Positions 11,365 to 61,591 are shown, counted from the stretch's first letter. The stretch: DNA of 64,000 nucleotides from Blasia pusilla (GCA_050084515.1 CM114271.1:33046001-33110000); one strand, 5' to 3'. Notes: a model not told the origin generated them from the sequence alone. A program made the numbers and translations.

Positions 11365-12324
11365 CTAACGCTTGGAGTATTGAGGAGCTTTGCGTGCCTT
11401 CTTCAAACCATACTTCTTTCTCTCCACCACTCTTGAGTCTCGTGTGAGCAAACCCTGCTTCTTTAGAGGATCCCTATTAGCTTGGTTGGCCACAATTAAA
11501 GCGCGAGCAATTCCTAATAGGATGGCCTGTGCTTGTGCAGACAGTCCACCACCCTGTGCTCTTACAATCGTATCATACTTGGATTCATATCCAAGACTGG
11601 CCAGTGGGTACTTCACAGCTTGCAACCACAGGGGGTTTCCTTGCAGGTAATCCTGCACAAACAAAAGGAAGTCACGACACTGCTCCTCGGTCACTCGGCA
11701 AAAAGTAAGACCAACTAAGAGTTTGCACAAGCTACATAACACTTTGGCTCCAGTTCGTAGCCAGTAGTCACAAGTATCCAGCATCAATCCTATCTTAATC
11801 GAGCCACAACCAAGACAAAGATGTGCAAATTCAGCTGTGGAAACGAATCTCCCCAACCAATCTGACAAACTCGTGTTCTCGGTTAAAAGGTAACCAAAAT
11901 TTAAAAAAATGCATCAGAATCAGATCATCGCAAATAAAGCAGCAATTCAACGTACCGTGGCAGTGCGGTTGTTAATGATAATCTGACCCGTGCCGTCCAC
12001 GAGCACCACGCGAGCCACAGCGGTTTTCCTCCTCCCCGTTCCCCACAATCGCGCGGCAGCGAATCCTCCCGGAAGAACACTCTTGACATAGGCTTCCAAA
12101 TCCGCCTCCGACTCCTCTGCCACTGCCGCTCCCGCAGCACAAACCTTCAACGCGGCGCCTCCGGCAGGCCTGGCTCTGAGAGCGGTAGCAATCCGAAATG
12201 CAGGCCTCAAACTCAGGCCATTCTGCGCAGAAAATCGCGATCCCAGTGGCGCAACACTCTTCTCTGAATTCCCCACCACCTGCAAGGACGCGAGCGACGC
12301 CGCTAGCGCTGCCATCGTCGCCAT
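11365..12324 (-). CDS. RPS9: Nucleus-encoded plastid 30S ribosomal protein S9 (uS9c) with transit peptide, 2 exons, 218 aa
   Basis: Exon 1 12324-11956: Ala/Ser-rich transit peptide, then [30 protein letters not shown]. Phase-0 intron 11955-11653 (GTACGT...TTTGTGCAG). Exon 2 11652-11365: [17 protein letters not shown]...[19 protein letters not shown]...[28 protein letters not shown]. Canonical uS9 motifs. Confidence 0.97.
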
Positions 12325-12334
12325 AGCTCACCCT

Positions 12335-16974: not shown

Positions 16975-17932
16975 CTTCAAAATTCCATTTTTTTCTAATT
17001 TTTATGTACAATGAAATAAACATGGAGAAGAGGTTGGGGGGGGAGGGGGGGGACTTGGAAAATTTTAGGGAGATTGAGAAAAAAAAATCCTAGTAACATC
17101 TTAAAAATGATGAATTTTGCATTCACTAAATTATCGAACCTCTAGGGGCACTTCCAAATCATAAGAGCCTATGAGTTATTATATTTTCTTATTGCACATA
17201 TCACGATGGAAATATTATATGTAGTATAGTATCATATATTTCTATGGATTTCTATAATTAATAATATATTATTAATTAATTATTAATCTTACTTTAGATT
17301 TATGAGCAAGTTATAGATTAGAATGCATGTATGATTGGTATGCTATTTTAACTCTTTTTCCCATGAGAGAAAGATTGACTTTTTATTTAATATCTTTATA
17401 TTTTTAGATTTCAATAGATAAGAAAATTTATTATTGTCATCTGTATCTTTTTATTTAGCAAAAACTTGACATCAAACCAACATTTATAAGAAAAGGATTT
17501 TCATATATTATGTTGAATGATCTATGAAAGTTGAATTTTTTTCATAGAAGAATGTACCAAGAGAATAAATATGTATTAGATACTATTTTATATTATATCC
17601 TGAGAGAAATTTATAATATTTATCAGGTATCACTAGAAGAGATGACATGAGACTCATATTTCCAAGTCATATTTTCATTGCAAAAGAATCTACCACAAAT
17701 AGAAGGATGAATCAAATTTCATATGACAATGTAATAAATTTTATTATAACTTGTAAAAAGAGAAACCAATAGAGAGAATGGGAGATTAGGCATCTTACTT
17801 TATAGTTTATCCACCTTGGAGATTAAGCAAACATTGATTTGTTTCATTGAAAAAAATCGGAATGTATGACGTTATGAAAATGCATATGTAAGCCCATGTT
17901 GCGTCAAACTTGTTTCTACTTCTTAGTAAAGA

Positions 17933-17936
<4 letters not shown>

Positions 17937-17970
<34 letters not shown>
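17937..17970. repeat. (GA)17 microsatellite
   Basis: Directly visible. Confidence 0.95.
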
Positions 17971-17972
<2 letters not shown>

Positions 17973-19049
17973 CAAAAGATTAGGTTATGAAGATTAGATT
18001 CTAAGGTTTGAGATTTAAAGTGGTTAACCTACAAAAGTACACACATCATTTCCATGCCAATCATAACACTTTGTGGATATTCATATATCATGTGGATCGC
18101 TAGTGTTCAAATGATGATTTTGTAGTTGAACTATAATTTATTATTTATGCTACAAGGAGAGAAATGTATTTAGAAGTATGGAATACTACTATGATGACAC
18201 ATCACCCATTTCATATTTAAGAAGCTATAGTATCTATACATTAACTTTAATAAATAAGAAAGAATCAAACATAAGCATCTTACATTCTCAACAGAAGATA
18301 ATCATAAGATTGGCCATAAAAATTTTCAACAAGAATAAATAGAACCCAAAAATCTTAGTTACATCTTCTATTTTGTTATTCTTCTCATAAGAAGAAAATA
18401 CGTTTTGAAATAATTTTTATGTTGTAGACAATCTATCAACCATTGCCTCAACGTTAAAAAGAAATGAAGTTTTGAATTTCATATATCATAATGAATATTT
18501 TGTACGAACAAGTGGTAAAGTGGAAATCATATCATCCTTTCTAATCATCTCTACTATTTGTAGAGAATATCCATAAATTATGAGGATTATCTTTCAGGAA
18601 ATTTTTTTATAAATATTTGTTAAGTTCCTAGGTTCTAGTATATAATTTTTATTGATTAAAAGGCTATAATACATGAGTTAAGAATTTTAGATATGCAAGA
18701 GAACTGGATTTTTTCAAGTTTTTATAATTTTTGGCAATTAAATGGCATTTATTAATCTCAATTGTAAATTTTAATTTCCTTAAACTATATATTAATAAGG
18801 ATTTATTTATTCATGATAAGTTTATTTCAAATTTAATATTTATATAAATAAGGAAATAATTTTATAGAAAATATAAGAAGTATAATCTTACTAGGAATTA
18901 ATTGAAATATGGACAAGATTTGTAATTGTAAGAAAATTTGATATCGTGTAAAATAATATCTTTCCCTTCTCATTAAAGGTTAATTACTATTAAAATCCAA
19001 TTAAAGATAAGAAAAAACCTATTCATAGCAAATCTAGTGTGTTAACTCA

Positions 19050-20200: not shown

Positions 20201-20559
20201 TATTGTACCACGGGGGCGAGACACTTCGCCTTAGTGGGGGGAGGGAGGGCTAAGAAATTTCCCATCTCTTCTATCACATTTTTTATATCCAATCGAAAAG
20301 TATCTATAGGGTGCCTTCGAGGAGATCATTTGGCTTAGAGATTTAATTGAGGACCATATCCGTGGAGAGGATACACCTACAACTCATACTCCTACTGAGA
20401 GAAGTGTCATACTACTTGCATTGTTTCATGGAGGAAAGGTGCCTTATGGGATTGGAATGAGGAGCATTGGCAATTAGCATACGAACATGTGTGAATGGTA
20501 GGGAGTAAGACCTTTGCGCAAAACAAACATAGGTCAAACGATCTTGAGGTAGTATGAGT

Positions 20560-21125
20560 GTTACGTTGTCACCCTTAGATATCTCACTAATGGCGCAACA
20601 CATTCAATTTGAGGGTGTGAGGGTGATGGATCTTTTTGGAGGGGTCAACATTGGGTTTGTTATTGTGCCAACCTAGCTAGTGTTGAGTGCAATAGTGTGT
20701 GTATTTTAGTACTTTCCATACGTGTCACACTCCAACAAGTGACACAGTTGTAACTACATTTTCCTATTTGCAACCCCCATCGGTCTTGAAGAGTTATTAG
20801 AGTTTCTTACTGAAGAACATTTTCTTGCTGGTAGCATAGGACTTATATTGCATAGAGACCATTGATTTAGTCATAATAGGTTGGCTATCTCAGGACTAGT
20901 TGAGTGGTGGAAGAGAAGGTGATTTTGGAGACTCTCCATCTAGATTATTTAGGGAGATGTTGAGGATCTTGCAGCATTTCCAAGGGCATCAATCTCATTC
21001 ACGAACTTACATGTTGGAGAATGTACCAATTTTGGATGATTCTCGTTCATAAGTGGCCATTGGAGACGATGTTACACCAAATGTGTGCTTGGATCGGACC
21101 AACAATATTTTTGGATGTATCAACC
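20560..21125 (+). pseudogene. Decayed DNA (cytosine-5)-methyltransferase domain, probably retrotransposon-borne
   Basis: Motif I EGVRVMDLFGGVNIG (20611-20655). Motif IV IDLVIIGWLSQD (20861-20896; GWPCQ with PC mutated to LS). Motif V-like GDSPSRLFREMLRIL. Motif VI YMLENVP (21008-21028). Then CAWIGPTIFLDV. Order and spacing correct, no introns, several stops and frameshifts. Confidence 0.8.
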
Positions 21126-21236
21126 ATATTTTCATGAACACGTTTGCACATAAGTAGTATTGCAAGCATAGTGGGTGCCAAAGAATGGGATTGGATCCTA
21201 CAATGAGCCAGACTATATATTCATGTGGGAGGAAAC

Positions 21237-21527
21237 CAAGGTTTCATATGGACAAAGTCCATGTCCATGGATTTACGTCCATCATATAGAAAGACTTATC
21301 CATATGGGCACTATCTTTCCCTTCTTGTTCATCCCCCCCACTTGCCTTCGTGATCTGCACTTTCTCATTTTTTCCTCCTCCAATATCCACTCCCTCCCCC
21401 TTTATTGCCCCGCCCACCCTTACCTTGCCCTTCACCATGAACTATAAGTGTAGGCCTACTTTTTGTAATCCATGTCCGTGGACATGTCCAAACATATATG
21501 TCTTAAGAATGGACTTGTCCATTTTTG
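21237..21527 (+). mobile_element. hAT-type MITE, copy 1 (one end truncated)
   Basis: Starts CAAGGTTTCATATGGACAAAG. It is the reverse complement of the copies at 21826-22156 and 53011-53337. Second TIR missing. Confidence 0.75.
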
Positions 21528-21825
21528 GATCAAGTGATAAGTCAGTATGGCAAACCAATGGAGGTTTTGATAGACTAGGATAAAGAGTTTTATGGTGAGT
21601 TTCAAGCTTTTTATGATTAGGCCTCGATGGACCACCATTGTACCACACCACTTTGCGAATGGTGGAGATGGTGAAGACGGATTTACACAAGTATAACTTG
21701 CAAGATTCAAGATTGGGGTTTGCATACGATTGGGGCCTATGATTTCCATGGTTGGCAATAAGATATAGAGTAAGTACACGAGCATCTTGGTGTGTTTCTC
21801 ACTTTCTTTCTTTTTGCTTTATGAG

Positions 21826-22156
21826 CATGGTTGCACAAAAAATGGACAAGTTTGTCCCTATGACAAACATAGACAAACACGTCTAGATATATCCACGGAT
21901 ACAGATTGTAAGAGTTGAGGCCCATACTTATAGGTAATGGTAGAAATCAAGGTGGCGGCCAGTAGGGCAATAAGAGGGAAGGGAGTGGAAATGGAGGGAG
22001 GAAGAAATAGGAAAGTGCAAAACACGGAACGTAGTGGGGGAATTGAGAAAGAAGGGGGAGGCGGGGCATATATGGAAAAGTCCCTCCATATAACAAATGT
22101 AAGTCCACGGATATGGATATTTCCATGGACATTGAATTTGTCCACATGCAACCTTG
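21826..22156 (-). mobile_element. hAT-type MITE, copy 2 (331 bp, intact ends)
   Basis: TIRs CATGGTTGCA...TGCAACCTTG. Perfect 8-bp TSD TTTATGAG (21818-21825 and 22157-22164). GGACA/TGTCC subterminal repeats. Confidence 0.9.
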
Positions 22157-23192
22157 TTTATGAGCAAGAGTCTGATTTACGTGCAACCATTCGTCGGGAA
22201 ATTAAATTTGTGAGGTGTTTAACCTTGATGATGTTGATACGTGGGTGCAACCTTGTTCTCCGTGGATTAAGTTGTTTCAAATATTGACGCCGATGTCATT
22301 CGAGAACTTGGCTAATGCGTAACATCGAGACACCTTGAGATAAACAACTATTCGAGGAGGATCGAGGTTATTGACTCCTAAACTAGAGGTTTTGTTAGGG
22401 AGACTATGTCTACTATCAGTAGACGTCACATATAACATTAGATGTTATAGTAGGGCGCACCATCTTGAGAGTGCCTGAGGTATTGTCATCCTCTCTTTTC
22501 TTATTGAAAGATTGTGATAGTATGATTTGGAAGGTAGCTATCCAAAGTTAGAGGAACTTAACCACCATTAAGGGGGCGATTGGATATATATTTTTTGGTA
22601 TACGATTGATTCTCTATGTCTATAGATATCATGAGTGAGTATGGTATATTGTGTTTATGTATGTGTGGATGATGGCAACGATGTATGTGGTATAATAATG
22701 TATATGCATACGACAATTATCATATCTTTTATAAGTGATCAAGGAGTATCTATAGGGTATATTTAAGGAGATTAAAGGAAAACCTCGAGAGGTCAATGAT
22801 GATCTATTGAGGACTAGGATAACCTTAGAGAACATGTTTCCCCTTATTTGGACTCATTTGGAGGTATATTAAGGAACTTATTCGAAGAATTTCCATTCCA
22901 TTTCTAAAAGCGATCTTTGAACCCCTACTACGTGTCACAACCCTCAAAGGTAAAAAATCAGATATAACATTAGAACTCTAGTGGAATCACACTAGGATCA
23001 ATGCCCGTCATAATATCTAGAATGAGACATGAATTGTAAGCAAGACACAAACCTTATTGGGCATTTAAAGTGATGATGGTTGTGACCTAGTAGAATAAGA
23101 CCAAATGCCAAACACCACTTAAGAGGGCTCAAGCCCAAAATAGTTGGGTGCCAAGGGGATTGCAACCTCACTTGGAACTTAGGGATTCTCCA

Positions 23193-23344: not shown

Positions 23345-23970
23345 TGTCGTACGCATACACATTGCTACACAACCCACATCTCTGGTCACATCTACACACC
23401 ACAAAACACTGATCTTATCCAACATACGGGTAGATCCACATATAAATGAAATACACTCACGCATATACATTGAGATCCCACAACAAAATATGAGTAATAA
23501 AATCGGCTCACCCAGCCTAAAACTCCACTCATGAATCTACATTGGCATATCAAACCACATCCACCCTCCGCTATGAGGGAATTCGGACGCTAGCACCCTA
23601 ACTCCTACACACCCACACACGTCTATGCAAGAGAGTCGCTCCTAAGGCTCAACATAAGAAAAATGGCTTGGGAAAGCCATCTTTCTCAATCTTATACCCT
23701 TGGGAAGAGCCAAAAGGATCTTCCCCTAAAAATAGCCCTACCAACGGTAACATGCGTGCACAGGTCACCGGGTGACCGTAGACTCGGTCAACGGGTCACT
23801 TGATGGACTAAAACCAAAATGGGGAAATCGCCATAAACAACATTCCTAACACAACAGACCTATTGCCAACCTCATCCGACATCTCGGAACGAAGTTACAC
23901 CCAACAACCCGCTGACTCTCTATGTCGTCGACGCGATAGAACTCTACTTACGTCAAAATAAGATGTGACA
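23345..23970 (+). mobile_element. Solo LTR (TGTCGT...GTGACA) with 4-bp TSD
   Basis: Starts TGTCGTACGCATACAC, ends TGTGACA, flanked by ACTT on both sides. Body aligns with 27721-28166. Confidence 0.8.
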
Positions 23971-23976
23971 ACTTTC

Positions 23977-24083
<107 letters not shown>

Positions 24084-24089
24084 ATAAAT

Positions 24090-24570
24090 AAGGGGGAGGG
24101 TCATGGGGATGAACTAAGGGCATACCATGGATCGAAAGGTTGGCTTCATGGTGTGGGAACTAATCCAAGTCCAAGAATGGCAATTATGGATAGCAACCTT
24201 AGATCTTGACTTAGGACTCAGATATTGGATCACGACTAGAGACTTGTTCGAGGTCTATTGGGCAGTTGGAACCACCAGATGGACTAACGCTATTTTAGAT
24301 TTGTGGACTATCAAGGAAGTGTATCCCAAGTCTTGAAGGACTTACTTGTGCTAGGGATAAAGGGGTTAGGTCGGTATCTGATCCCTCTTTGATCTGTTGA
24401 GCTTGAGTCTTAGACTTGGGAGATGTTGAGATTGGTTGACCCAAACAGTGCCTAATGTGAGTGTGTTTGGATGCAAATCCGTAAGGAGAGCATGACCTAC
24501 TGAACTTAAGCTTTCGCAATAGATGAAATCAACATTCAAGAGGAGTAGGCGTAGGCGTAGGCGCATGACA
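24090..24570 (-). repeat. Family B LTR fragment
   Basis: Minus strand starts TGTCATGCGCCTAC at 24570. Aligns with 16510-16957. Confidence 0.6.
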
Positions 24571-27500
24571 TTGCACGTTGAGAACCAAGAAGATGACCTA
24601 TAGATAGAAATAACCAAGGATAGGGCTTGGAGAGAGGAAATGATATACCCAAGGAGAGAGAGCGTTGAATCTCATTCTTTCTTTTGTTGAACCTCTTTTC
24701 ATGAGGCAACGGAACTATGGTCCTCCTTGCCTCATGACTAACCTAAGCCTCTCACTAGGAGATTGGGTTTGGTAACTTTGGTTTGATATGAGAGAGACAT
24801 GGATTCTGTGAGCTTTGATGTGACTTAATTTATCATACATATTTTGATACACAATTTTCTATGTTTTTAGATATCATGAGTGAGCATGATATGTTGTGTT
24901 TATACATGTGTTGATGATGACAATGATGTATGTTGTTCGACAACGTATGTGCGTACAACACCCCCCTCAAGAACTTTCGAACGAGACGGCATTTAAGGGT
25001 CTAAATAGTCACTCTTATAATTGATAATATATTGGATACATAGATAAAAAAATTTCTCATATACCACATGTGGTATAAGTTGGTATCCTCGTGGTTTGAC
25101 TATTTGCATTATACTTCCATCATTTGAGAACATAATATTATATCATTGAATGAATAACTTTACCTTGGGACCACTGATTTTGGTCTCCATAACTTTATTA
25201 CTTAGATCGGTGATCTTGTGAGTCTTATTATCTTAACATGTATCATAAGATCTTGACTAGGAGGAGTTGTATCTCGTGGAAATCTATCATGGTTGTTATC
25301 TTAGACTAACACTAGATTGCGCAATTTTAGTTATTTTGGTTTCAAATTTTTACCATAAGGTAAATCCATAGCTTGATGTTTAAGTATCTTGCAATAAAAA
25401 GTGACATATAGATCTCAAGCTTCTTATACCAAGAGTATCTCCTCCATAGGAATACATATGAATTGCTACTACATGATCTCTAAAGAAAGGCACATCAATT
25501 TGAAAGGTAAGCATCGCCAACTCGATGGGTAAGAGAACTTCTCACCTAGAAGAGGGGACTATGTTTGCTGGTAACATTCAAATTAGTATGGTAAGCCCAT
25601 AAGGCCGCATAGATATTTTGATCCCAATCCCTTTAGAAATGATTCACTGTTTTTAAAAGAATTACAGAAACAATATTGTTTGTTTCTATGTTTGTTCTTT
25701 TTCCCAAGGGTAATATGGAGTAGAATGGGGATGCTTGATGAAATATAACTTTGTAAGATTATTTACAACATAACTCATGAAATTTTAACTTTTTGTCACT
25801 AAAATCTCGAAAGAAAACGTCTCCATAAATTATGTACTAAAACATATACTTGGTGGTAGCCACTACAATGATGGATAGTCCAAGTTTTGCCTTCTCCCAT
25901 TTTATAATATAATCTATGACTATGATCAAATATTTGTGACCACTTGATGTTTTAGTTTGATCTCTTATTTTGTGTAAAAGGATGTAGTGATTCAACTGGA
26001 ATGAGCGGCATGGCATCAAATATCTTTTATCGTCCAACCTTCCAACATTGTGGATAGGTTTGAATATACTCAAGGATGTCTCATTCCATAGTAGGCCAAA
26101 ACATCATGAGGATAAAAGTCTTTTGGAAAGTCATTTTTTGCTCATAGGGACCCCAATAGGCTTCACTATGGGCAGAGTTGATAACACTATGGATCTCTAA
26201 AGGTTAAAGGCATCGACGAAGAACATCATTTTTTTCCTCTCTGGTAAAGGGTGTCATTAATCAATGTGTAGCTGAAGGTTTTATGAACAAAATATGATAT
26301 GGCTACTCTACAAAGATCCCAAGGAAGATTGTGGGTATGTAGAAATTGTATAGTTGGTGCACGCACACCACTCTATCTCAGTCCAATATATACTTATATA
26401 ATTTGGAATTGTATCATCCAAATCAAGACTTGGCAGTCCAAGGATGCGAGGCATCATTTGTGCATCATTATGGTTGGCCTCATATCAATGTATGATCCGA
26501 TATCAAAATATTGTAAAAGCATAATCTATCGTGAAATTTTTGCATTTAGCTGTGAGTCCAATTTATGAAGGAAATCTCAAATCGTAGTATGATTAAAAAA
26601 AATGTAGAAGATTTTGATGCCAAAAGGAAATGGCAAAACTTTTAAATGGAAAAAACCACCCATAATGCTTCTCTCTTGATAGTATTGTAATTCCACTCTT
26701 TTGCAATGAGTGATGTGTTCGAGAAGTAAAGGGGATGTCCTCTTCCATCCTCATTTTTCTCGCAGACCACTATACTCGAAGCAAAGTGTCCAAATGAATT
26801 ATAAGTTCATGTGAATAATCCAAAGTGGCAAGTACTAGATCAGTGGCTAACTTTCTCAAAACAAATTGCCTCGCAAATTCACACTTTGCAATCCACTCAA
26901 AGCGGATTCCTCCTTGAGCTAATTTTTTGATGCAGTCCAAGTTTCTAGCAAAGTAATGTAGAAACCTGCGGCCATATCCTACATCTCCAAGAAACACCAA
27001 AAATTATTGGGATGTGGATGACATGAACATTTTTTTCAAGAAAAACACTTTGCCAAGGTCAGATACATTACTTCCTCCATCAATGACATTATCTAATAAT
27101 TTCCCTTCTGTTGTGCCAAATATTCATTTCTCGAGATTGAGAGAGATTTGCAATTTCTGACATCTTTGCATAATTGTCTATAGGGTTTGAAGATATGAGA
27201 GCCTCACCATAAATAGTGTAATCACCAAAAAAGATGGCCACACAAATAATGATCAAATCTACATCAAATATATTCATGAGTCGTTGGAAAGCATACATAC
27301 CATTGGGCAAACCAGATGACAATTTGCAAAAGGAAATAATTCCTTATTACATTCAAAATTAGCCATCGAGGAATGAAGACATCTAATGTCCTCCCACTTG
27401 GTCATGCATCAGATTGATAAATAATAGAGGAAACTTAACATTCACTATGGCATGGTTGAAACTCGATAAGCCATACACATCCGCATCTTCTTCATTGTTG

Positions 27501-29450
27501 CTTTCTTTTTCCATATTAGAACCAAGGGTCACACTCATTCACAATGCTTGATTGGATAATTAATATTGCCATGGAGTAACTTTGTGACATTTTCAAAAGC
27601 TAATTTATGAGAATTTGGGATTCCTATGATATGGTTTATGCTTCATAGGGACAACTCTTGGTATTAGAGGTATTGGGTGGATGTAGACAAACTCATGTGA
27701 CCCATTCATATTCACATAAGTGTCTCGCGCATACATATCGTTGGTCACATCCACAACACACAACATCTATCTTTCCAACCTACGCGTAGATCTACACACA
27801 TGTAAGAAACCAAATCATGAATGTACACCAAGATTGCACCATGGCTCACATGAGAAATATGTCTTGGGAAAGCCATCTCTCCCTCTCTTATAGCCTTGAA
27901 AAGAGCCAAAAGGCTCTTTCCCCAAAAATAGCCTCCAAACGGTAACCTACGAGCAATAGTTACCAGATGACCATTGACTTGATCAATGAGTCACCTGGCA
28001 AGAAATAACAAGGAAGGGAAATCATCATAAACGATGTTCCTGATGCAACGGACTAGTCCTCAACCTCATCCGATATCTCAAGACAAAGTTACACCCAAAC
28101 TACCAACTGACTCTCTATGACGTCAACGCGGTAGAACTCTACTTGTCAGCTAACTAAGTTGTGACATAACTCTAGTCTTGTGTGTAAATAGCTGGTTGGA
28201 AATGAAAAAATAAAATAAAATAAAAGTCATATGGGAAAAAGCTTGTTTTTTCAAATTCTTTGAAAAAAATTTTTATATCCAACAACTGGTGCAGGGAGAA
28301 GGTTGATACCCACATGAAACATATTGTCTAGCTTGGGATCCGTAGTGAGATTGATAGTTTAATAGGTCTCATTTTGTATGAAAAAAAAACCTTATACTCT
28401 CTTGGTCTCATACTCTTGATTATTGTAATGCTAAAAGCCGCGACTTATTTTAGGATATGACCCATAGAATCTTCTCTCTTGTAGATAGTTTGGGCCTTTC
28501 CACCATAATTATAGTATATGTTGCATAAAAATCTATAGTCCCCCTCACGGTCCTCAAGCTTTTTATCAATACGTAGGATGGTAACTTGAATTACTAACCA
28601 TCCGAATGTGGAATGGAGAGAGAAGAATATGTGTAATCCCTTCCTACTCCTCCTGACAATCATCATCATTAACCCACAAGTAAAGGATGATGATCAATAT
28701 TCTTGACCTTGAGTACATAGAAGGATTTTTCTACATGAATGATCGCCTATCTAGATTTGTACTCCAAAGGTTTCCCCTTCTTGTTTGACTCAATTACCAT
28801 CAACCATCTTAAGGACACACTAGGTTGGCATCATACCCTTAAGATCCCACTTCTGCCCCGAGTATTTAGGGAATTGGTGTTGGATCCAACCCTTGCATGA
28901 ATAATGACATTGTTGAGCCTAAAACTAACAATATATTGTCAGAGTTATCCGTAGTGCCCGATAAATTAAACAATAATTGATCCTCCTTTGCTAAGGCTGA
29001 TTTACCAAATAATTCCTTTAATTGATCAAGAACACACATATCTCATATAGATACCTTAAGACTATTTGAGAGGGGATTCTTAAATAATGTGTAGATAATC
29101 ATTTTTGTTGTTGCTGAAGCTCTTCCTAAGTCATCCTAGTGAGTCATAGTTCTGTTGGAACCTGCAAGATCATAAGTCTCGTACATTTCCGTAGTGTTAG
29201 TAGTCTCTCTTGGTTTTTTTCATTCTTTCTATCATTATTAGGCAGCAAGGATATATGAGAAAATTGAGGAGGTAGAAGATCTTCCTTTGCAATTCTTACC
29301 CCTTAACAAGTGATCACATTCAATAGCTAAGTTGTCTCCATTATCAATGAGATTGATGGGTAAACTTCCTCCATCGGTAAATTTGTTTGATGGATATTTT
29401 GGAGGAGGTGGTCTTTTCAATGTTTGGTGAGGAAGTTTTATGTGGTCCTT
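24571..29450 (-). mobile_element. Decayed Ty3/Gypsy element (gag/protease, RT, RNaseH, integrase, PPT, family A 3' LTR)
   Basis: RT MSSGLPNGMYAFQRLMNIF..IFFGDYTIYG (27089-27322). FLGDVGYGRRFLHYFA (26770-27000). Integrase KYLIIVIDYIIKWEKAK (25837-26073). PPT GAGGGGGG (24968-24961) abutting LTR start TGTTGTACGCACATAC at 24960. Left and right limits approximate. Confidence 0.8.
27721..28166 (+). mobile_element. Solo LTR nested in the Gypsy pol region
   Basis: TGTCTCGCGCATACAT...GTGACA, flanks TAAG/TAAC (3 of 4 match). Homologous to 23345-23970. Confidence 0.7.
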
Positions 29451-29790
29451 TATGCAAAGTCACTCTCTTTGTCGAGTGACGATTCCGGGCAAAAAAAAAG
29501 TCCTTAGCATTGCATTTCTCACCTTTCTACGAAGACTTTGTATTAAAAATAGGGATGACCTATAAACCCATAAGGTATGCACATTTTTTATGGCCACTCC
29601 AATTATATCAACATGACTTAGAACCATAAGTCTAGTAGATTAGCTAGACTCACTTCTTAGTGTTAAGGAGGCTTTTTTCTCTCCTAAAGTGTGTCTTCTC
29701 TTTCTATTTCATGTAGTACACCAATGTGCTAGAGTTAACCTTGATAATGGTATTTGGGACTTTGTATTTCCTTACTTTGGATTTTTATCA

Positions 29791-32700
29791 TGGTATTAGA
29801 GTTTGGCTTAATGTTAGACTTGGCAATTGCTATGCTATGGTTTAATGTTAGACTTGGTAATTGCTATGTTACAAAGTTTTTTCCATTGATTAATGTTTTC
29901 TTTCGTTTTCATAAATTTTCTTCTTATTTGAAAATTATTCTTGTACTTCATATAGACTTTCTATTAGTAAAAGCTCATCGTCGTCACTTTTATTTCATTT
30001 CCATAGTAATGGCTTCTTCATCATCTGATAATCGCCTTGAACGGCTTGATGAAAGAAACTATAGCACGTGGTCTTTTTCCATGATGTATTTATTAAGTGC
30101 TCAAAAACTCTTTAAATATGTAGAAGGGAAAATGTAGAGACCAAATGAGGAAAAAGCTTGTGTGAGAGACAAATGGGACGAGGAAGTGATGGAAGCGATA
30201 CCGCAAATTATTTTGCATATAAACCCATCGTAGAAAAGTCATATTAGAAAGTGTATGACAACGAAGGAGATGTGGGAAGTATTAGCTAAACTCCATAAAC
30301 CATCAGGTATTACTTCAGAGCTTACTTTGCATAGAAAACTTTACAATCTTCGATACATAGAGGGCAAGTCCATGGAGATTATTTTTCGTCAAATGTTGGA
30401 TCTTAGGCATGAGTATATCAAGGTTGGTGGAGAGATGAGCAATCAGAGCATGGCATGGCTCATGCTAAATACTTTTCTTGAATCTTCGGATCTATTGGTT
30501 TAATCAATGAGATTATGGAGAAAGGAAGAAAGAGGAAATTATGCGATCCATACTTCTCGAAGAGGAGGCAAGGCGTAAAGAGAAGAATATCTATTTAGCT
30601 TCTACTTTGTTGATGCAATCAACGGGGAAGCTCCTCCAACGCAAGCAGAATGCAAAGTTGGACCAAGAAGGATGGAAAGTCAAAGGGAAAAATAGACATC
30701 TTAAAGTTGAAGAACAGATGTCGAGCTTGTGGAGAGATTGGGCATTGGAAGGATGATTCAGAATGTCCAAGGTTGAGAGACTACGCGGCAAGTGCAAGTA
30801 TAGTCGTGGTCCTCTCTACGCGAGAAATGGTCAACAAGCATTTAGCAAATACACCAAGATCATCGGTAGATTTTCTTTGTATTGATTTTACTGCCAACGT
30901 GCATATACAAGGGGATCGAAGCAAGATCCATAATTTGGATGAAAGTGCATCCATCCAATTACAAGGCTATGATGGAGGTATAAGAGAATCACATGGATGA
31001 GGCAAGATGCATCTCATATTTTTGGTTCCTAAGGGAGAGCGCACTGTGGTGATTGTGAAGAATATGCATTGGGTTCTTGGTGCACGAGATATACTTTTAT
31101 CGGTTGCAACTTATGCAAAGGGGCTGCAAATTCAACTTGGATGGAGATGGGGTAGATTGGTTCCTACCGTCTGGAGTTCTACTTGCTCATGGGAAGCTTG
31201 AGGGAAAGGCTTATCTCCTGTGTTGTGAAATTGAGGAGACCACATTTACAGTGAAAGCTTCTCTTTTAGGTCGATCACTTCTTGACTGGCACCAAGCATT
31301 GGCACATGCCTCTACAACAACAATTCGTGAAGTAGAGCGTACAGGGGTTTTTGAAGGTTTGAACATTATTGGCAACAAAGAGCTAATGCCAACATCTGAG
31401 GCATGTATAGTTGGTAAGGCACACCATCAACCTTTTCCAGATACGCATAAGCATGCCAAGGGAATTCTAGATGTGGTAATTTCAGATCTAGAATATTATG
31501 GCATTCCCAACTTTGGAGGTGCTAAGTGGATGGCTGTGTGGATACATGAGTGTTCGCAATACACTGGCTTAGTTTTTCTCAAGACTAAAGATCAAACTCA
31601 TGAAGCATATAGGATTTGGGAGAGAGAAGTGTAGAGAAAGACATAGCGGAAGGTGAAAACTTTCCTTACTGACCAAGGCACGGAGTTCTGAACTAGAAGC
31701 TTGGTTCATACTTCAAGGCGCTTGGAATCCGACATAAGGTAACAACTTCATGCACATCTGAGGTTTTTGGGATAGCAAAGTGAAAGATGCACACTATCTT
31801 TGAAGGAGTTTGCACACTCCTTGCAGGAGCAAAGTTAGATCGTCGCTACTGGGCCTATGGAGCAAAATTTGTTGTGTGGACTTGCAATCGACTACCACAT
31901 GCACAACTTGCTGGTAAGACACCCTACAAAGTATTCTATAATAAGAAACCCTCTATTGCCCATGCTCATCCGTTTGGTTTTTCTGCTTGGTATCATATAC
32001 CAAAGGAAAAGCGGAAAAAGCTTGATGAAAGTGTAAGGAAAGGTATTTTGATTGGCTATTATGGGATTGGAAAGGGGTACGAGATTTATAAACCGAAGAG
32101 TAAAGAGATTATTCTTAGTCATGATGTGAGATTTTATGAAAAGTAGGTAACAATTGTAACCTCTGACCTACGTCCTTCAAGGACAAATGACACTCAAGAT
32201 ATTAACCTTCATGTTGTGAAGTTTGGTTCTTCCAATCAGAGGGAAATCTCGGACACCATAGAAGTTGGCGATACACATGTTCTTGAAGAACAAGAGGAAA
32301 TTGGTGGGGGTACTAAAGATGATATGGAAGCAGATGTTTGTCTAGACGAACAGGTGCAATCTCACTTAAGGGGTGGAATTGATCCTATAAAAATTATTGA
32401 TGGACCACGTAGGCGCCGAATACCTTGGAGAAAAGATGATAACTTTGTACAAGAAGATTTTCTTTTGGAGATGATTGACTCAGCAAAGGTTCCTCCACAC
32501 TCTCAACATGATCCCAAGACCTTGGAAGAAGCTTTGAACTCTCCCTTTGCAAATCAATGGAAAGTGGCCATGTAGGAGGAGTTGCAATCTCTAAAAGAGC
32601 ATGGCATATGGGAGTTTGCAGATCTTTCAGCTGGAAGAAAACCAATAGATTCAAAATGGATATTTCCCACCAAGGTTGCATTAAAGGGATAAATTGAGAG

Positions 32701-33942
32701 GTTCAAAGCACAGTTAGTTGCAAAAGGCTACTCCCAAGTTGAAGGAATTGATTACCAAGAGACTTTTGCACCTGTGGGACGTCTTGCAACAATTCGTGTG
32801 TTTTTTTGCCCTAGCAGCCACTCTAGATTGGAGTGTTCAACAACTTGATGTCGTTTCAACTTATTTGAATGGCAAACTTAAGGAGGATAATATCTTCATA
32901 GTACCTGAAGGTTTGGATACTCCTCTAAAGCACAAAGGCAATGCAAGGTTGTGCGGCTGCTATAGACTCTGTATGATTTGAAGCAAGTTGGACGTGGATG
33001 GAATGAGAACTTAGATTTCTCCTTATTGGCGCTTGGTTGGAAGCGCTCTGATTCTAACCCATGTCTCTACACAATTAAGATAGATGAGTTGGTCCTTGCC
33101 CTTATTGTGTATGTTGACGATGTGTTGATTGGAGGGAATAAATTTCAGATGATTGTGACTCAAAAGGAAGATTTGCAGAGGTACTTCAAGATGAAAGACT
33201 TTGGTGAGTTGAATCATTTTCTGAGCATCTCTTTCTCTTGGAGTAAAGGGGATGGAGCCATTAGTTTGAGCCAAACTAAGTACATCTCTCAAAAGCTTGA
33301 AGAATTCGAGATGAAGGAGGCAAAAGCTCTTGCAACACTAATGGAGCTTGTGCATTTAACTATTAATGATATGCCGCTCGACTCAAATGCACGAGTTAAT
33401 GATTCAAAAGGAGTCAAATTGTATCAACAAGCATTGGGATGTTTGTTGTATTTGGAAAATGCAACTAGGTATGATATCTCTTTTTCTTTCCAACACTTTG
33501 CACAATATATGTCTCAACCTTGCACATCACATTGAAAAGGAGTGAAACAAGTGTTTTGATACTTGCAAGGAACTAAGAATTTAGTATTGTGGTATGGAAG
33601 CAAGCTTGCAACTTGTAGGATACATCGATGCAGATTGGGGAGGTTGCAAGGAGACTCGATGTTCAATTGGAGGTTTTGCTTTCACACTAGGCGGAGCAGT
33701 AGTCTCTTGGTCAAGCAAGAAACAGACAATAGTCTCTCCCTCATCAACAAAAGCAGAATATGTTGCCGCCTCTATTGCAGCAAAGGAGGCTCTATGGCTT
33801 CAAAAGGCAATGAGACATTATGGGATCGAGCAACCACATCCAATCCTCATTCATGAGGAGAGTCAGTCGTATATTGCCATTGCAAAGAATCTTGCTCATC
33901 ATGGTCGAACCAAACATTTTGATATTGAACACCACTTTGTAA
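29791..33942 (+). mobile_element. Ty1/Copia element, near full-length gag-pol pseudogene truncated in RNaseH
   Basis: PBS TGGTATTAGAG (29791) after an LTR-like end in CA. Gag LERLDERNYSTW. Zinc knuckle CRACGEIGHWKDDSEC. GAG-pre-integrase WHQALAH..ACIVGK. Integrase, including [21 protein letters not shown] and LIVYVDD. RNaseH YIDADWGG..STKAEYVA..TKHFDIEHHFV. Many in-frame stops. Confidence 0.93.
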
Positions 33943-35105
33943 CACTAGAACAAATTGGGTATTGTATGACTCTAATAAATGACTAGATTGAGTCATTGTT
34001 CACGATAATTGACTCATAACAATTAGAGTCATATACATGATATGACTCTCACTACCAGATTGGTAAATGAGTGAAGTCATTAGGTACTCATTCATTGATA
34101 TATGACTAAGAAGTGACACGTCAGAGTGTCAAGTTGGTGTATGACATGGCAAGAAGAAATAACGTGGCAAAGTGAGCATCAAATCCTATATTGCCACGTG
34201 TCACACTTGGGAATGTTGGATTGATTAGGCTTAATCAGATGATGACATGTGTAATGATATGAACGAATGACATAGTGACACGTGGTTGAAACGACTGAGT
34301 TATACGTATCAACCGCGTCATTTCCTATGATTACATGAGTCATTTATTATGACTAGATGGGTTTGCAATTACGAATATTTTAGTCACCTTAAATGTAGTA
34401 TAGTCATATTTTATAACTAACTGAGACATTATATTGATGGTTTGAGTCATTCATGATTGTACGAGTCATATTTCCTTACCATTTGAATCATTATGTTGAC
34501 TAAATGAGTTATTATCATGACTAGATTAGTTATTTTTATGATCACTAAATAATATTTTGGTCGTCTGAGTTATTTGACATACTGTATTAGTCATGCACAT
34601 AACTCTATCACTTGTGTTTTATTACTAGATGATGTATTGTGTTCACAGTTTGTCATTGCTCCTCCTAGTGATTGTTAAATCAGAGGAATTATGTTGGTAA
34701 CTAAGTGGTGCTCATCTAGGTAACATTATCCTCTTACCACAATTAGAGATTCTCTCAGATCTAACAAGGAGTAATGTGTGAATACAAGTAGCATAGACAA
34801 TGGTGAGGATAGACAAAATCTCAATCTAAAGGTCTAGAAGAGGGACATATATCAAGCAAGTAATTTTAGGATACATCCCAATTACAATGAAAACTGAAAA
34901 CTACAAATACATCACAATCAAACCATCCTCTAATTGATGAAACCAAAATATAGATGATTCATTGTATGACAGAATCAAAGTATTTACATCTGAACAAGCT
35001 GCAAGAAGGAACCAAGAGCATATGGAAGCCAAACTACAAACAAATGAGGTAATCGAATCATTGTGAAAGTTTAAATATTTATGAAAATCACAAATCCTAG
35101 AAATC

Positions 35106-38840: not shown

Positions 38841-41649
38841 TTTAAGGAAGTGCGTAGAAAAAAGAGAAGTGGTCTAAAGCTAGATTTAGTCAAGAAGAAG
38901 ATATGGAGGCAACTGAGATAGATGAGGATGATGCACATGTGTGGCAAGTGTTATCTCAAGAACAAGGTGGCGTAGAGGATGTTCTAGCCTTCAAAGAGAA
39001 TTTGTATGAGGGCAAGTTAAAATAAATTGGGCGCTATTTAAGCACTCTGCAAAGAGACGGAGGGTGGACAGACAAGTTCTTCAAGGAGATTCGGCATAAG
39101 GCGTATGGCTATCTATTAGAAGATGGATATCTTTGGAAAAGACCAAAGAAGAAAGATGGAATGCCCTTGAGGGTGATGGATGACAATGGGACAAAAATGC
39201 AAGTGCTCAAAGAATTCCACAATTCTTTATGGGCAGGACATAGAGGTACTTGGGCAACTTTCACCAAGATAAAAGAGAGGTATTGGTGGAAAGGCATGTA
39301 CAAGGATGTTGAGAGATATGTTGGGTCATGTGTTGAAGGTCACTTTCAATAAAAAATCATGGTGAGAGATGGACTTAAATCCATGTATCCTTTTTCTATT
39401 CATCATCAATAGGTTATAGATCTAGTTGCTATGCCACTAGGTCTTTGGGGAATGCGCTACCTGATCCTAGCACGAGAAGAGTTGGCCAACTTCGTAGAAT
39501 GGAGGGTTTTACAAACTAAAACAATAGAGCCTATATGTCGTTTTATTCTAGAGGATATAGTTGCTCGATATGGGAGTATTGGGAGAATCCGTGCAGATAG
39601 AGGAGAGTTGAATACGGAGGAAGCACGATAGTTCTTCAAGAGGTATGGAGTCTAGCTGAGATTAACAACCTCCATGAATTCGAAGGCAAACGGCAAGAGC
39701 GAAAGGGGACATCAACCAATCATTCAAGCATTGGTGAAGGCGTGTGGAGAACGTTATGCTGATTGGCCTAGATTGCTTCCATTTGCTTTATGGAAAATAG
39801 AACCACTCACATTACCGTTACAGTGTTCATGCCTACAGAGTTGATGGCAGGTCAAAAGTAATGCCAGCAAAAAGAGATATTCCCACTTGGATGGGTTTGC
39901 CATAGGAAGACGCGCTTGATAGGGAAGAGCTCCTAGCATTTCGAATGTAGCAGCTAGAGAGGCGGGAAGAAGATGTTGTAGAAGCATTAGTCAAAATGAA
40001 GAAAGCAAGGTTGAAAAATAAGGAGCGCTTCGACAAAACTCATCGACTTCGAAAAGAGCCTATAAGAGAAGGAGATTGGATCTTGGTGCACGACAATAGC
40101 CTCGACAACTAGCATAGTACAATTAAGAAGTTTGCACATCGTTGATTTGGTCCATACGTTGTAGTCTTTGCTTTTGACAATGCCACTTACGAACTACGTG
40201 AACTAGATGGCACAATTCTCAAGCTGCCCATTGCTGGAAAAAGGGTCAAGATTTTTCGTAAACGTGAAGGATTTCTTGATTTCGATTCAATGTGTCTAGA
40301 GGCACAACAAAAATAAGTGTGAGTAAAATAACAAGAAGTCTCGATATTTTCGGCACATACTAGAGGATGTGCAGGTTTGGAGGGGTTGAATGTCGTATAG
40401 TAAAATCACCTACTATGTAAACTCCTCTATCACTAAGTGTTAAAGAGAGTTCTAATAGTATTAAGTAAATTAGCCTAGGAAAATGAAATTCTCATGTTCA
40501 AACCTCTTTAGGATGAATCATTTGCGCGGGCCCAACTTTAGGAAAAGAGGTAATAAATAAAAGATGGGATTAGAAAAGTAAAGTAATGGGATTGGTGCTT
40601 TAATAAAACAAAAGCAAAAGTAGTCTTGGTTGGTGGGGAAGTTTGGAAGATATGAAGGGAGTAAAAGAGGATATTTTGGAAGAGATAAGAGGTAATCTAC
40701 TTATGTCAAAATGTGATTGACTAAGCCTTGAGAGGAAGCCATGTGGCACAAGATAAGATTAGCCCTATTTCGTACTTTTGTGGATCCCTTGTGAGTATAT
40801 AAAGAGGAGGGACCTTAAAGGGTTCATCACCTTCTACTTCATATCTTGAGTCTCTCGTGTCACTCTTGAGTCTATAGCTTTGGGATTGCTTGCTCTCCAA
40901 TGAGAGTGGATTACCCCTCTTGGGAGAGTAACTTGACGTTGGTCTATTCTTCGAGAGTTTTCTAGAGTGTGGTATGCGTGGAGATGAGAGACTTATCACC
41001 TTAGATGAATTTAGTCATATTAGAAATAGAGGATGGTTTGGCTTTTTTTTTCCCAATGAGAGTGGGATTACCCTTATTAGAAGAGCAACTCCGCGAAATC
41101 TCATTCTAGAGGAGAGTAGAGGATGTTTGTGAAGTATGGATAGGGATTGTGCCGGATTTTCCTTTCCTTAACCCATACCACATCAAGATCCTCTTTATAG
41201 ATAGGCACTGGTTTACTCGCTATCTAGTTTATCACTTTGGGGACGCGTTCATGAACCAAGTCATGCAATCTCCAACTCCGATGATTCTTCCTAGAGTCAC
41301 GTACGGAAGGATATGGGATTGCACTTTATATGTTCTTATATAGCTATCTATGGACGTCAATAGGCCTCTTCGAGTAGGGTTTAATAATAGTTGTGCTATT
41401 TTTCTTGTGTACAAATGTAAGGTAATTTACAGTGATTTTATAGTTAGGAATTTGGGGGTTCCATGTTATGAAGAAGTGATCGCCTCGGCACTACCGTTTT
41501 TGATTCTTGTAGTGAGAGAATGGAGAGTTAACATAATAATTCTGTACTGAAAAAGGAGAAATTCTTATAGAGTTATTCGACTTGCATCAATCACTTATAC
41601 TGCAACTAGAAGGTCCGCCCTTACTTGAAGAAAGGCTCTCGATACGACA
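38841..41649 (+). mobile_element. 3' half of a Ty3/Gypsy element: integrase, PPT and complete 3' LTR (40391-41649)
   Basis: H2C2 region EFHNSLWAGHRGTWATFTKIKERYWWKGMYKDVERYVGSC. Core ILEDIVARYGSIGRIRADRGE. GPY-like motif near 40150. PPT GGAGGGGTTGAA. LTR bounded by 8-bp inverted ends TGTCGTAT (40391) and ATACGACA (41649). Confidence 0.9.
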
Positions 41650-43335
41650 GCGTGCCATCTTGGCATCAACTCCTCATCACTCTCACTATGCCAACGAGAT
41701 TCCATCGCATCTCTCTAACTCAAGCATGGCTTACGGCTCAAACCATCTACATCTTGGTTGAGCGTCCCAAGTCTATGCACCACCTGAAAGTCATACTCCT
41801 GCAACAAAAGAGCCCACATTGCAAGCTTCCTTGTAAGCATCTCAGACTCCATCAACCACTTAACTGGCTGATGATCAATAATGATGGTAAAGGGGTTGCC
41901 GAAAAGATAACAACTGAAATGTGCGATAGCCCACACCACAGCCAAGCACTCACCCTCATATGGGCTATACTTTGCCTATGCTGCGTTGTTCAAGCGACTA
42001 GCATAAGCCACCACAAACTCTCTACCATCATCGTCATGTTAGGTGAGCATAGCTCGAAGCCCCAACATGCTCCAATCGGTATGCAACTGGAAAGGACGCC
42101 CCCTGATTAGTCTCCTAAATGTGGGCATGGACGTCAATCTATCCTTGAGCAGTTGAAATGCTCTCTCCTGCTCATCCCCCCAGTGTCACTCTTGACTCAC
42201 CTTGGTCAGCAAGGTTAGCGGCTTCGCAATCAAACTGAAACCATTGACGTACCGTCGATAGAAGTTTGCTAATCCCATTAATGCACGAACTCGACTCACA
42301 TCTATAAGGCGTGGAATACGTGATATAGCCTCTTTCTTTATTTGCTACACACCAAGGCCCCCTGGGTATATCGTATGACCCATTTACTCAATCTGGTTGT
42401 AGAAGAACTTGCACTTGCCTCGATGTACCTTCAGCCCATGTAACTGCAATTTTTGAAACACCTCCTCTAGATGTCGCTCATGCTCCTCAACCACGGCGCT
42501 AAAGACCACGATATCATCAATATATATAACACCTAGCAAAATCCATACCTCCCAAGGTCCTATCCATGATTTCTCTGAAACTCAACCGGTTCTTACCAAC
42601 CCGAATGGTAAAAACCGCCACTGGTACAAACAATCCTTCCCGTGAGGAATGATGCCCCAAAATGCGGTCGTCTGCATGTACTCCAATCTGATAGGTAGCT
42701 GATGGTATTTGGCTCGAAGATCTAGCGAACTGAAGACCTTTGCATGCCCAATAGCATCAAAGATCTACTTAGGGGCGAGCTTAGGGGTGGGCATGGCATA
42801 CTTATCGGAGTTTGTCAGCCAACTAATAGGTCGGTAATCTCCACACATCCGCCTATCCGTCCAGTTGCCATGCACATCCCTCTTGGCGGTATGACTGTGG
42901 CAGATGCAAATTCTCCATGCGACATCTCCACTAGTCATGCTCCAACCAAGTCCTGGCTCATACTATGAATCAGAGCCCTCTCCATATCACTATACTTGTA
43001 CGGTCGTCGGAAGATCGGCATGTCTCTCGCCAACTCAATGCGGATCCTTGGACCCTTGAGCATACCCAAATCATGCATGCTAAATGCAAAACACCTCCTA
43101 TAACTCCTAAGGAACTGGTGTATTCGGTGTCGGTCTCCTCTTGTCAACTTAGGGCCCATATCTGGCTCCCAAGTCTCAATTGTGACAGCGGTAGGACTCT
43201 GTAGCACATGTGTTGGTGTTTGCTACGGTGCAACCCCGTCTCAAAAAATAGAACTCGGCTGCTCCTCTACAGCCAACTGCAAACTCTGATCTCCACGTGC
43301 AGTACTGAGAACCACGCTCGATGATGTGGCTACCA
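41650..43335 (-). mobile_element. Ty3/Gypsy RT-RNaseH remnant (green-lineage GNWTDRRMCGDYR type)
   Basis: FLRSYRRCFAFSMHDLG..PIFRRPYKYS, AKRDVHGNWTDRRMCGDYR, VIYIDDIVVFS (about 42500-42533), and RNaseH AVVWAIAHFSCYLFGNPFTIIIDHQPVKWL..LQEYDF..DGLSR. Confidence 0.92.
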
Positions 43336-53010: not shown

Positions 53011-53337
53011 CATGGTTGTACCAAAACGAACAAGTTTGTCCCTAAGAAAGACATGGACGGATAAGTCTAGAATGTCCACGGACAAGGATTGCAAGAGTTG
53101 GGATCCACACTTACAATTCATGATAAACGACATGGTAAAGGTGAGTGAAGTAAAATGGGAAAGGGAGTGGAGGTGGAGGGAGAAAGAAACGGGAGAGTGT
53201 GGAAAACAAAGGTAAGTGGGAGAAATGAGAAAGAAGGGGAAGGTGGGCACCACATGGACAATCCTTCCATAGGGCAGACGGAAGTCCACGGACATGGACA
53301 TGTCCGTGAACATGGACTTTGTCCACATGCAATCTTG
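53011..53337 (-). mobile_element. hAT-type MITE, copy 3 (327 bp, intact ends)
   Basis: TIRs CATGGTTGTA...TGCAATCTTG. Perfect 8-bp TSD GTCAATTC (53003-53010 and 53338-53345). Homologous to 21826-22156. Confidence 0.9.
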
Positions 53338-60700: not shown

Positions 60701-61591
60701 ACAGGGAGAGGGTACATTTTGTTTTACCGTGGTTAGGCTCGGACTCCGAGGAGGTTTAACCCGCCGAGCTCGTAGATGCTGCACGCGTACACCGTGGTCG
60801 CTCGAAAGCCTGTCACCGGTGGCCGGTCGCGTCTCCAGAAGGTTCCGTCGAGCATCTGCACAGCGTACGCCAGGGCCGGGCGGACGTAAGCAACCGGCTA
60901 CAGACTTACCCTACCAGTTATTACTGCAGTGGAGTGTGGAGCGCAGTTGCGGTACCGGGTGGCACGAGGTTCGGAACTTCCCGTTAATCTCTTCCGCCTG
61001 GAGGACTGTAGCTGGGAATTCAAACGGAGGCGAGAGAGAACGTGGGGGTTGGGCGACAGACGGCCGTAGCGGTACATGGGCTGGCGGGAGAAAGCGTGCT
61101 GGAAGGACTTGGGAAAAGTCAGCGGGGCCAACCGGGACGGACGGCGAAGTGGGGTTAGGGTTGTAGCTATACGGGAGGTCCCGTGGTGGAAACGAAATGA
61201 CTGGGGGAACGCTCGCAGGATTTTGCCCGGGGGTCGACGAGCGAACCTGCGAGCGACGAGCGAGCGATGGTGTGTCGATGAGGAGAAGTGAAATGGGGGA
61301 AGAAGACCACATCTCGGCCGAGTGTAGTAGTAGTAGTGGTAGGAGGTAGGAAGAGGAGCGGAGAGGGAGGAGCGAGGGTAGGAGAGGAGGAGGAGGGGCG
61401 AGATGAGGAGGAGAAGAGGGCGAGAGAAATCGAAGAGGATGAAGAAGGAAGGGCCGAGGAGGGGGGAGGACGAGAGGAAGTAAGGAAAAGGCGGAAAGGG
61501 GGAGGGAGTGGTGCGAGACGCCACGGAGAAAGCGGGATGGTCTTTTGAGAATTTGGTGCTTGGAGGAGGAAGGGAGAGAGGGAGGAAGGAG

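Follow-up and report, generated by a model that had tools for sequence, protein, structure and literature searches.

The window analysed here, a stretch of 64,000 nucleotides of DNA from Blasia pusilla, contains a short decayed region in which motifs of a C5 cytosine methyltransferase (DNMT) can be read, and the locus raises the question of what this enzyme was and what carried it. A first-pass annotation, made from the sequence alone, had placed the region at 20560-21125 and had taken it for the remnant of a Gypsy polyprotein with its own DNMT. The location was right and the real span slightly wider: in tblastn and in searches with a profile of related proteins (the family profile) the intronless remnant extends over 20548-21161 on the plus strand, colinear over three frames, from a leader preceding motif I to motif VIII (Table 1). 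When the window was read in stop-to-stop frames, the motifs DLFGG, DLVIIGWLSQ and LENVP were found where they had been reported and in the correct order, and the remnant is indeed invisible in a list of ORFs, the longest open frame in the region being 57 amino acids.

The motif order in the fossil is I, IV, VI, VIII, with I and VI readable and IV lacking its Pro-Cys. Motif IV (20864-20893, frame 2) has LSQ at 20885-20893 where the family has PCQ; the catalytic Pro-Cys has become Leu-Ser and the nucleophile is lost. The earlier derivation of this decayed motif from GWPCQ agrees with the signature around motif IV in the family, GW-PCQ-GH, the family form of motif VI being ENVP. A single TAG separates motif IV from motif VI (LENVP, 21014-21028, frame 2, with ENV at 21017-21025), and the spacing between the two is 44 residues in the fossil as in the family; from motif I to motif IV it is about 84 residues against 87 in the family. 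At least two frameshifts lie along the aligned path, as do at least five in-frame stops (20798, 20837, 20897, 21050 and 21135), the first three of which fall inside the frame-2 piece and the fourth of which terminates it. Given the loss of the catalytic Cys and the many stops, the window copy would now be inert. Family homology ends at 21161, in motif VIII, and neither the profile nor relaxed tblastn found the target-recognition region, motifs IX and X or any later family-profile position downstream in the window copy. A motif IX suspected from the translation at 21158-21286 found no support in the family profile.

Table 1. Features of the window with their positions, strands and supporting matches.
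Feature	Position	Strand	Reading	Support
DNMT leader and motif I (DLFGG 20629-20643)	20548-20673	+	frame 1	family profile 49-84, E 1e-4; tblastn 38-47% identity to P0013-P0016, P0018
DNMT motifs II/III to VI	20747-21049	+	frame 2	tblastn 41-47% identity over 90-101 residues to P0002, P0011, P0016, P0018; family profile E 1.9e-13
DNMT after motif VI to motif VIII	21072-21161	+	frame 0, stop 21135	family profile 219-239; tblastn P0013, P0015, P0020, P0035 at residues past ENV
Profile piece	20548-20673	+		E 1e-4, profile 49-84
Profile piece	20840-20896	+		E 0.2, profile 146-163
Profile piece	20900-21049	+		E 1.9e-13, profile 170-215
Profile piece	20964-21134	+		E 0.46, profile 219-239
Repeat of about 300 bp, between DNMT and integrase remnants	21248-21526	-		blastn 68% to 22126-21838 (inverted), 72% to 53299-53072
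Integrase catalytic-core remnant	21522-21823	+	stops and one frameshift	tblastn P0192, P0196, P0197, 33-50% identity, E 4e-11 to 5e-10 (linked pieces)
Second repeat copy, about 330 bp, interrupting the integrase remnant	21826-22156	+	integrase alignment skips about 350 nt	blastn 74% to 53011-53337
Integrase C-terminal remnant	22221-22533	+	two frames with stops	tblastn P0192 2167-2269 and P0197 2229-2305, 33-50% identity, E 5e-11 and 7e-7
Third repeat copy	53011-53337	+		three copies 68-74% identical
Second Gypsy integrase (zinc-binding domain and core)	38879-39805	+		23-28% identity to integrases of the DNMT family
Decayed RT and RNase H fragment	41646-43192	-		tblastn P0020 residues 689-1139, 54-59% identity, E 2e-149; tails of P0035 and P0022, 62-86%
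Copia-type element (gag, zinc knuckle, integrase SH3-like domain, RVT_2)	29748-33983	+	several frames	
Direct repeat pair, about 4.2 kb apart	23646-23970 / 27843-28166			77% identity
Gypsy RNase H remnant inside this pair	26645-26806	-		
Nuclear gene for plastid ribosomal protein uS9 (uS9c)	11368-12327	-	at least two exons	
Long (GA)n microsatellites	17929-17993, 23967-24097			
Longest open frame of the window	60901-62142	-	414 residues	no Pfam match

To what extent is the remnant a methyltransferase by descent? A match to the Pfam DNA_methylase HMM, proposed by the first-pass annotation as a check, failed for the fossil itself: its pieces lie at the correct profile positions (62-117) with 11.3-11.9 bits (E 0.15-0.23), under the cut-off of 22, and a longer read-through gave no match to this model. 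Searched with phmmer against PDB chains, the fossil found no methylase, just irrelevant weak matches. A 105-residue read-through (with X at two stops), run with phmmer against 1,835,955,588 representative proteins, gave eight matches at E<=1e-3, the best at 3.1e-8 with 49% identity, and six of the eight reach the Pfam cut-off. With the family profile, built from 15 members, all 4155 stop-to-stop pieces in the six frames of the window were screened; the matches were the four colinear pieces listed in Table 1 and one unrelated weak piece, with nothing comparable elsewhere. Marchantia proteins aligned by tblastn to 20551-21161 with summed E values of 1e-21 to 1e-17 and 40-47% identity, the identity to named relatives being in the same range (40-47%) over about 200 residues, and 60 of the 133 family query proteins (the fossil's own translation not counted) match the fossil at E<=1e-5. 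Both the GW-PCQ-GH context and the leader peculiar to the family, ahead of motif I, fall within these matches. The relatives pass the Pfam cut-off of 22 (38.6 bits for P0002, 47.3 for P0006 and 51.1 for ORF1 of locus L016), and it is because of them, not through its own Pfam score, that the fossil is counted as a C5 methyltransferase by descent.

Extended searches reveal the nature of these relatives. When the first alignment was used to look for longer proteins, 35 were obtained, among them 14 Marchantia polymorpha clusters (533-1333 residues) and one Sphagnum protein; a further Marchantia protein from the first search brings the number of Marchantia polymorpha protein clusters to 15. A second search, with full DNMT domains, returned 88 proteins of 1001-2855 residues, 61 of them with RT and/or integrase domains; Marchantia polymorpha and two strains of Closterium are among the named sources of these 88. 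In metagenome contigs at least 595 stretches were matched, of which at least 364 encode a relative; 80 loci were kept. By Pfam, a single ORF encodes RT, RNase H, DNMT, integrase and a PHD finger in P0041 and P0043; in the Marchantia protein P0020, RT and RNase H come after the DNMT in the same ORF, P0025 has an aspartic protease and then the DNMT, and P0037 combines a CCHC knuckle with the DNMT. Further relatives consist of one polyprotein of about 2300 residues. The Gypsy order of protease, RT, RNase H and integrase is seen in L016, L026, L037 and P0192-type proteins. The DNMT lies there between protease and RT, and in the more distant P0041 and P0043 between RNase H and integrase. Every close relative is either joined to RT, RNase H and integrase or a fragment of such a protein. 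In the protein atlas just one generic streptophyte DNA_methylase cluster and one mostly viral cluster were found.

The nearest relatives are continuous polyprotein ORFs in which the methylase signature is joined to a CCHC-type gag and to aspartic protease, RT, RNase H and integrase domains, and the kind of Gypsy polyprotein that had been proposed as the source of the remnant exists; so does the predicted placement of the DNMT between protease and RT, seen in intact relatives such as L016. The proposal of an LTR retrotransposon is borne out by LTR pairs around related ORFs at five loci, and that of a land-plant lineage by named relatives from Marchantia polymorpha and Sphagnum, with the charophyte Closterium in addition. 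Liverworts, mosses and zygnematophyte algae all have members of this DNMT-carrying Gypsy family.

Intact members are bounded by LTRs of 300-340 bp and encode, in this order, gag (CCHC), aspartic protease, DNMT, RT, RNase H, integrase and a PHD finger; the methylase is translated either in one frame with Gag and protease or as part of the complete polyprotein. In L016, ORF1 (1369 aa) holds the protease at 708-757 and the DNMT from 940, and ORF2 (1047 aa), which comes after an in-frame UAG, encodes RT, RNase H and integrase and, at its C-terminus, a PHD finger. L026 has the same architecture, and L037 has DNMT, RT and RNase H within one ORF. The UAG between ORF1 and ORF2, which are in the same frame, is at 5083-5085 in L016 (followed by CAG-TTA) and at 4661-4663 in L026 (followed by CAA-TCA), a context that resembles the UAG-CAR-YYA read-through context of plant viruses. 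Nine proteins from metagenomes have lengths (1330-1376 residues, and 1330-1354 in eight cases) that would suit an ORF1 like that of L016. The PHD finger at the integrase end (L016 ORF2 990-1034) is also seen in L026, L037, P0041 and P0043. Chromoviruses carry a chromodomain at the place where these integrases have the PHD finger, and this finger may be a reader used in the choice of insertion site.

Loci of at least 8 kb were screened for direct repeats, and ten had long ones. In L030, L037, L041, L058 and L075 an LTR pair brackets the matches to ORF1 and ORF2, which come in the proper order; the repeat pairs of L068 and L080 also enclose the match, and those of L007, L015 and L039 do not flank it. 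The LTRs of L030 and L037 are 292-342 bp long and about 92% identical; those of L030 run from TG to CA, and the 5' LTR of L037 begins with TG. Most metagenome copies are decayed: five of the 80 loci have an ORF of more than 200 aa holding PCQ-like and ENV-like motifs (three of them through motif IX), a count whose PCQ/ENV pattern misses a divergent ECQ/ENT subfamily. In this subfamily (L037 10739-12100) ECQ stands for PCQ and ENT for ENV, and a long open frame runs across DNMT, RT and RNase H. Intact relatives retain PCQ and ENV and have the target-recognition region and motifs IX and X. For the three pairs of intact DNMT domains compared, dN/dS was 0.14-0.16 in each, with dS saturated (about 1.3) in two of the three. 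As judged from these codon comparisons and alignments, the DNMT of intact members keeps all catalytic motifs and is under purifying selection.

To type the methylase, seven DNMT domains of the family were combined in a profile and compared with PDB sequences. DNMT3A, 3B and 3C ranked first (E 6e-19 to 1e-14), followed by plant DRM (1e-8 to 1e-6), M.HaeIII and M.HhaI (about 1e-7) and DNMT2 (1e-3), and there were no DNMT1 or CMT chains at E<=1. In the alignment with DNMT3 the motifs follow the standard order; I, IV, VI and VIII are covered, and IX and X less strongly. By this ranking of E values, which belongs to the family profile and not to the fossil alone, the family enzyme is DNMT3-type and non-permuted. 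Cellular DNMT3 (animal DNMT3A/3B/3C and plant DNMT3), with the same standard motif order, provides its best sequence-profile relatives; unlike these, the element enzyme has none of the cellular DNMT3 partner domains upstream, is fused to protease and RT, and is intronless and repeated in the genome. Plant DRM is a distant homologue of the element family. It is circularly permuted, so that the motif I-IV region of the family aligns to the C-terminal part of DRM chains, whereas fossil and family have I, IV, VI and VIII in that order, as the first-pass annotation had indicated.

The same annotation had referred to methyltransferases captured by retrotransposons in dinoflagellates and in Klebsormidium, in agreement with the account of de Mendoza et al. 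2018 (PMC5890265). In that account KnitGypsy-Dnmt3 of Klebsormidium nitens is a Dnmt3-type DNMT in a Gypsy element, its acquisition being attributed to the K. nitens lineage. It shares with the family described here an intronless, non-permuted Dnmt3-type DNMT in an LTR Gypsy polyprotein of a streptophyte host, and its key catalytic residues are reported as kept, with Ka/Ks <0.2 (PMC5890265), next to the dN/dS of 0.14-0.16 in the present family. The hosts differ, being K. nitens there and Marchantia, Sphagnum, the window bryophyte and Closterium here; and the K. nitens repeats are described as arranged as in DIRS elements (PMC5890265), whereas the present loci show plain LTR pairs. No K. nitens protein is among the matches listed for the fossil or family searches. 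SymbioDIRS-Dnmt3 and SymbioLINE-Dnmt of Symbiodinium are likewise described as retrotransposon-encoded C5 methyltransferases, those of the DIRS elements being Dnmt3-type and part of the Pol polyprotein (PMC5890265). These dinoflagellate elements are DIRS (with tyrosine recombinase) or LINE, whereas the present family combines LTRs with an aspartic protease and a DDE integrase. In a yeast assay reported there, the Symbiodinium DIRS enzymes gave CG methylation and the Klebsormidium enzyme gave none, a result that its authors called inconclusive (PMC5890265). The main text of PMC5890265 does not mention Marchantia, and one of its supplementary tables names Physcomitrella, Klebsormidium and also Selaginella, with no mention of Marchantia or Sphagnum. 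In the full-text literature searched (subscription journals and PDF supplements lying outside its scope), such elements are described for Klebsormidium and Symbiodinium only and none for land plants.

Gypsy integrase-like fragments and a Copia remnant had been said to flank the region. The first part of this claim held, with integrase remnants directly downstream of the fossil and on the same strand in tblastn, at a place (21522-22533) where Pfam does not detect them. A Copia remnant directly upstream was confirmed neither by Pfam nor by comparison with the window's own Copia element. The second Gypsy integrase of the window is, on its low identity to the integrases of the DNMT family, assigned to a different Gypsy lineage. 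Near the fossil no gag or protease of the family was found with the ORF1 profile or relaxed tblastn, no RT is detectable next to it, and no LTR pair was found around 20548-22533. A 55-nt direct repeat of 75% identity lies just outside the fossil element (20272-20326 and 22718-22772), and 150 nt at 22748-22897 resemble 44294-44140 on the minus strand, about 0.8 kb upstream of the RT fragment; these weak flanking DNA similarities (70-75%) may be LTR remnants. The RT/RNase H fragment itself probably belongs to the DNMT-bearing clade, in a comparison whose queries were family proteins only and in which the DNMT-bearing Marchantia model P0020 came nearest to it; no DNMT is detectable upstream of it.

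From this evidence, 20548-21161 is very probably the dead N-terminal half of a DNMT3-type domain from the polyprotein of a Gypsy-type LTR retrotransposon. Because integrase remnants follow the DNMT fossil on the same strand, we read the two as parts of a single element, and consider it reasonably probable that they are one old, internally deleted copy. The window copy would be one old insertion that lost gag and protease on its 5' side, and an internal deletion of about 2.7 kb would have taken the second half of the DNMT, the RT, the RNase H and the integrase zinc finger; the integrase core and C-terminus would be what was left at 21522-22533, broken up by two copies of the short repeat. Two unrelated insertions lying side by side would turn the DNMT piece into a solitary fragment of 0.6 kb, still from a DNMT-carrying Gypsy element. 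Such an arrangement would fit with the two copies of another repeat that sit between and within the DNMT and integrase remnants, with the lack of LTRs bounding the pair and with a surrounding region that is a mosaic of decayed elements. We hold it to be rather unlikely, however, as the remnants are in correct order on the same strand, only 361 nt apart and similarly decayed, and the integrase remnant resembles the integrases of polyproteins with a DNMT (33-50% identity) more closely than the second Gypsy integrase of the window does (23-28%).

Descent from a host gene, as a processed pseudogene or dead duplicate of DNMT3, would be in keeping with the DNMT3-type domain of the family and the intronless state of the fossil, and bryophytes are reported to possess a cellular DNMT3 (PMC10952607, PMC5890265). 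It is nevertheless very improbable: the fossil alone finds no DNMT3 chain in PDB and yet matches the element family at 1e-21, its leader and GW-PCQ-GH signature are found in proteins that have protease, RT and integrase as well, and integrase remnants come after it. We give a still smaller, marginal probability to an origin of the methyltransferase in a giant virus that had integrated, in a DNA transposon or in DNA transferred from bacteria. Insertions of giant viruses, with genes that are methylated, have been reported in a moss (PMC12344493) and one neighbouring cluster in the protein atlas is mostly viral, but the close relatives are all tied to RT, RNase H and integrase or are fragments of such proteins, the bacterial enzymes reach 1e-7 against 6e-19 for DNMT3 with the family profile in PDB, and no viral genes were seen near the fossil. 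Among close relatives none was found in a viral genome or flanked by terminal inverted repeats. That decayed AT-rich DNA should resemble methyltransferase motifs by chance might be suspected from the Pfam E values of 0.15-0.23 and from the lack of anything relevant in PDB with the fossil alone. The probability of this is close to nil, since the E value of 3.1e-8 was obtained among 1.84 billion proteins, the family profile gave 1.9e-13 and four colinear pieces with no comparable match among 4155, and the spacing from motif IV to motif VI is exactly the 44 residues of the family; the chance resemblance is refuted by phmmer against the protein library, by tblastn with Marchantia proteins and by the family profile.

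With the remnant read as part of a DNMT-carrying Gypsy polyprotein, the living members of the family suggest how such an enzyme may work. It would be made within a Gag-Pol precursor, freed by the protease of the element and methylate DNA de novo. Its target could be the new cDNA or the copies of the element itself, or host DNA, following by analogy the proposal made for Klebsormidium and Symbiodinium (PMC5890265). The benefit to the element might lie in the methylation of its own cDNA or in interference with host silencing, ideas that are discussed in the same paper (PMC5890265).

The single fossil is modest in itself, and its interest lies in the family that it revealed. On its protein relationships, this is a known kind of element extended to land plants (bryophytes) and to Closterium. 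DNMT-carrying retrotransposons have accordingly entered or persisted in land plants, having previously been described from one dinoflagellate genus and one charophyte alga (PMC5890265). We propose, tentatively and with rather less than even confidence, that DNMT3-type Gypsy elements are not peculiar to Klebsormidium but make up an ancient streptophyte lineage already in existence before land plants, with members in zygnematophytes, liverworts, mosses and possibly Klebsormidium and with intact, selected copies in bryophytes including Marchantia polymorpha. If this is true, a self-encoded de novo methylase together with a PHD-finger integrase could both write methylation and choose the chromatin for insertion. 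The family is abundant and some of its copies are intact; many occur in Marchantia polymorpha, a model plant that can be transformed and whose methylomes have been mapped, and the role of an element methylase (on its own cDNA, in self-protection or in disturbing host silencing) is therefore directly testable there. A practical consequence is that DNMT gene counts in bryophyte annotations include transposon copies.

The remainder of the window holds further decayed elements and one identified host gene. The direct repeat pair at 23646-28166, with the Gypsy RNase H remnant that it encloses, is probably another decayed LTR element. The uS9c protein is 96% identical to those of Marchantia polymorpha, M. 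paleacea and Riccia sorocarpa and 95% to those of Ceratodon and Riccia fluitans, followed by lycophytes, ferns and seed plants; it equals none of the named entries, and these matches make the host a bryophyte, probably a liverwort. Among sequencing runs, two DNA runs share a small part of the words sampled from the window, and no RNA run is listed. Two long (GA)n microsatellites are also present. At the longest open frame of the window, long frames overlap on both strands, which suggests biased composition.
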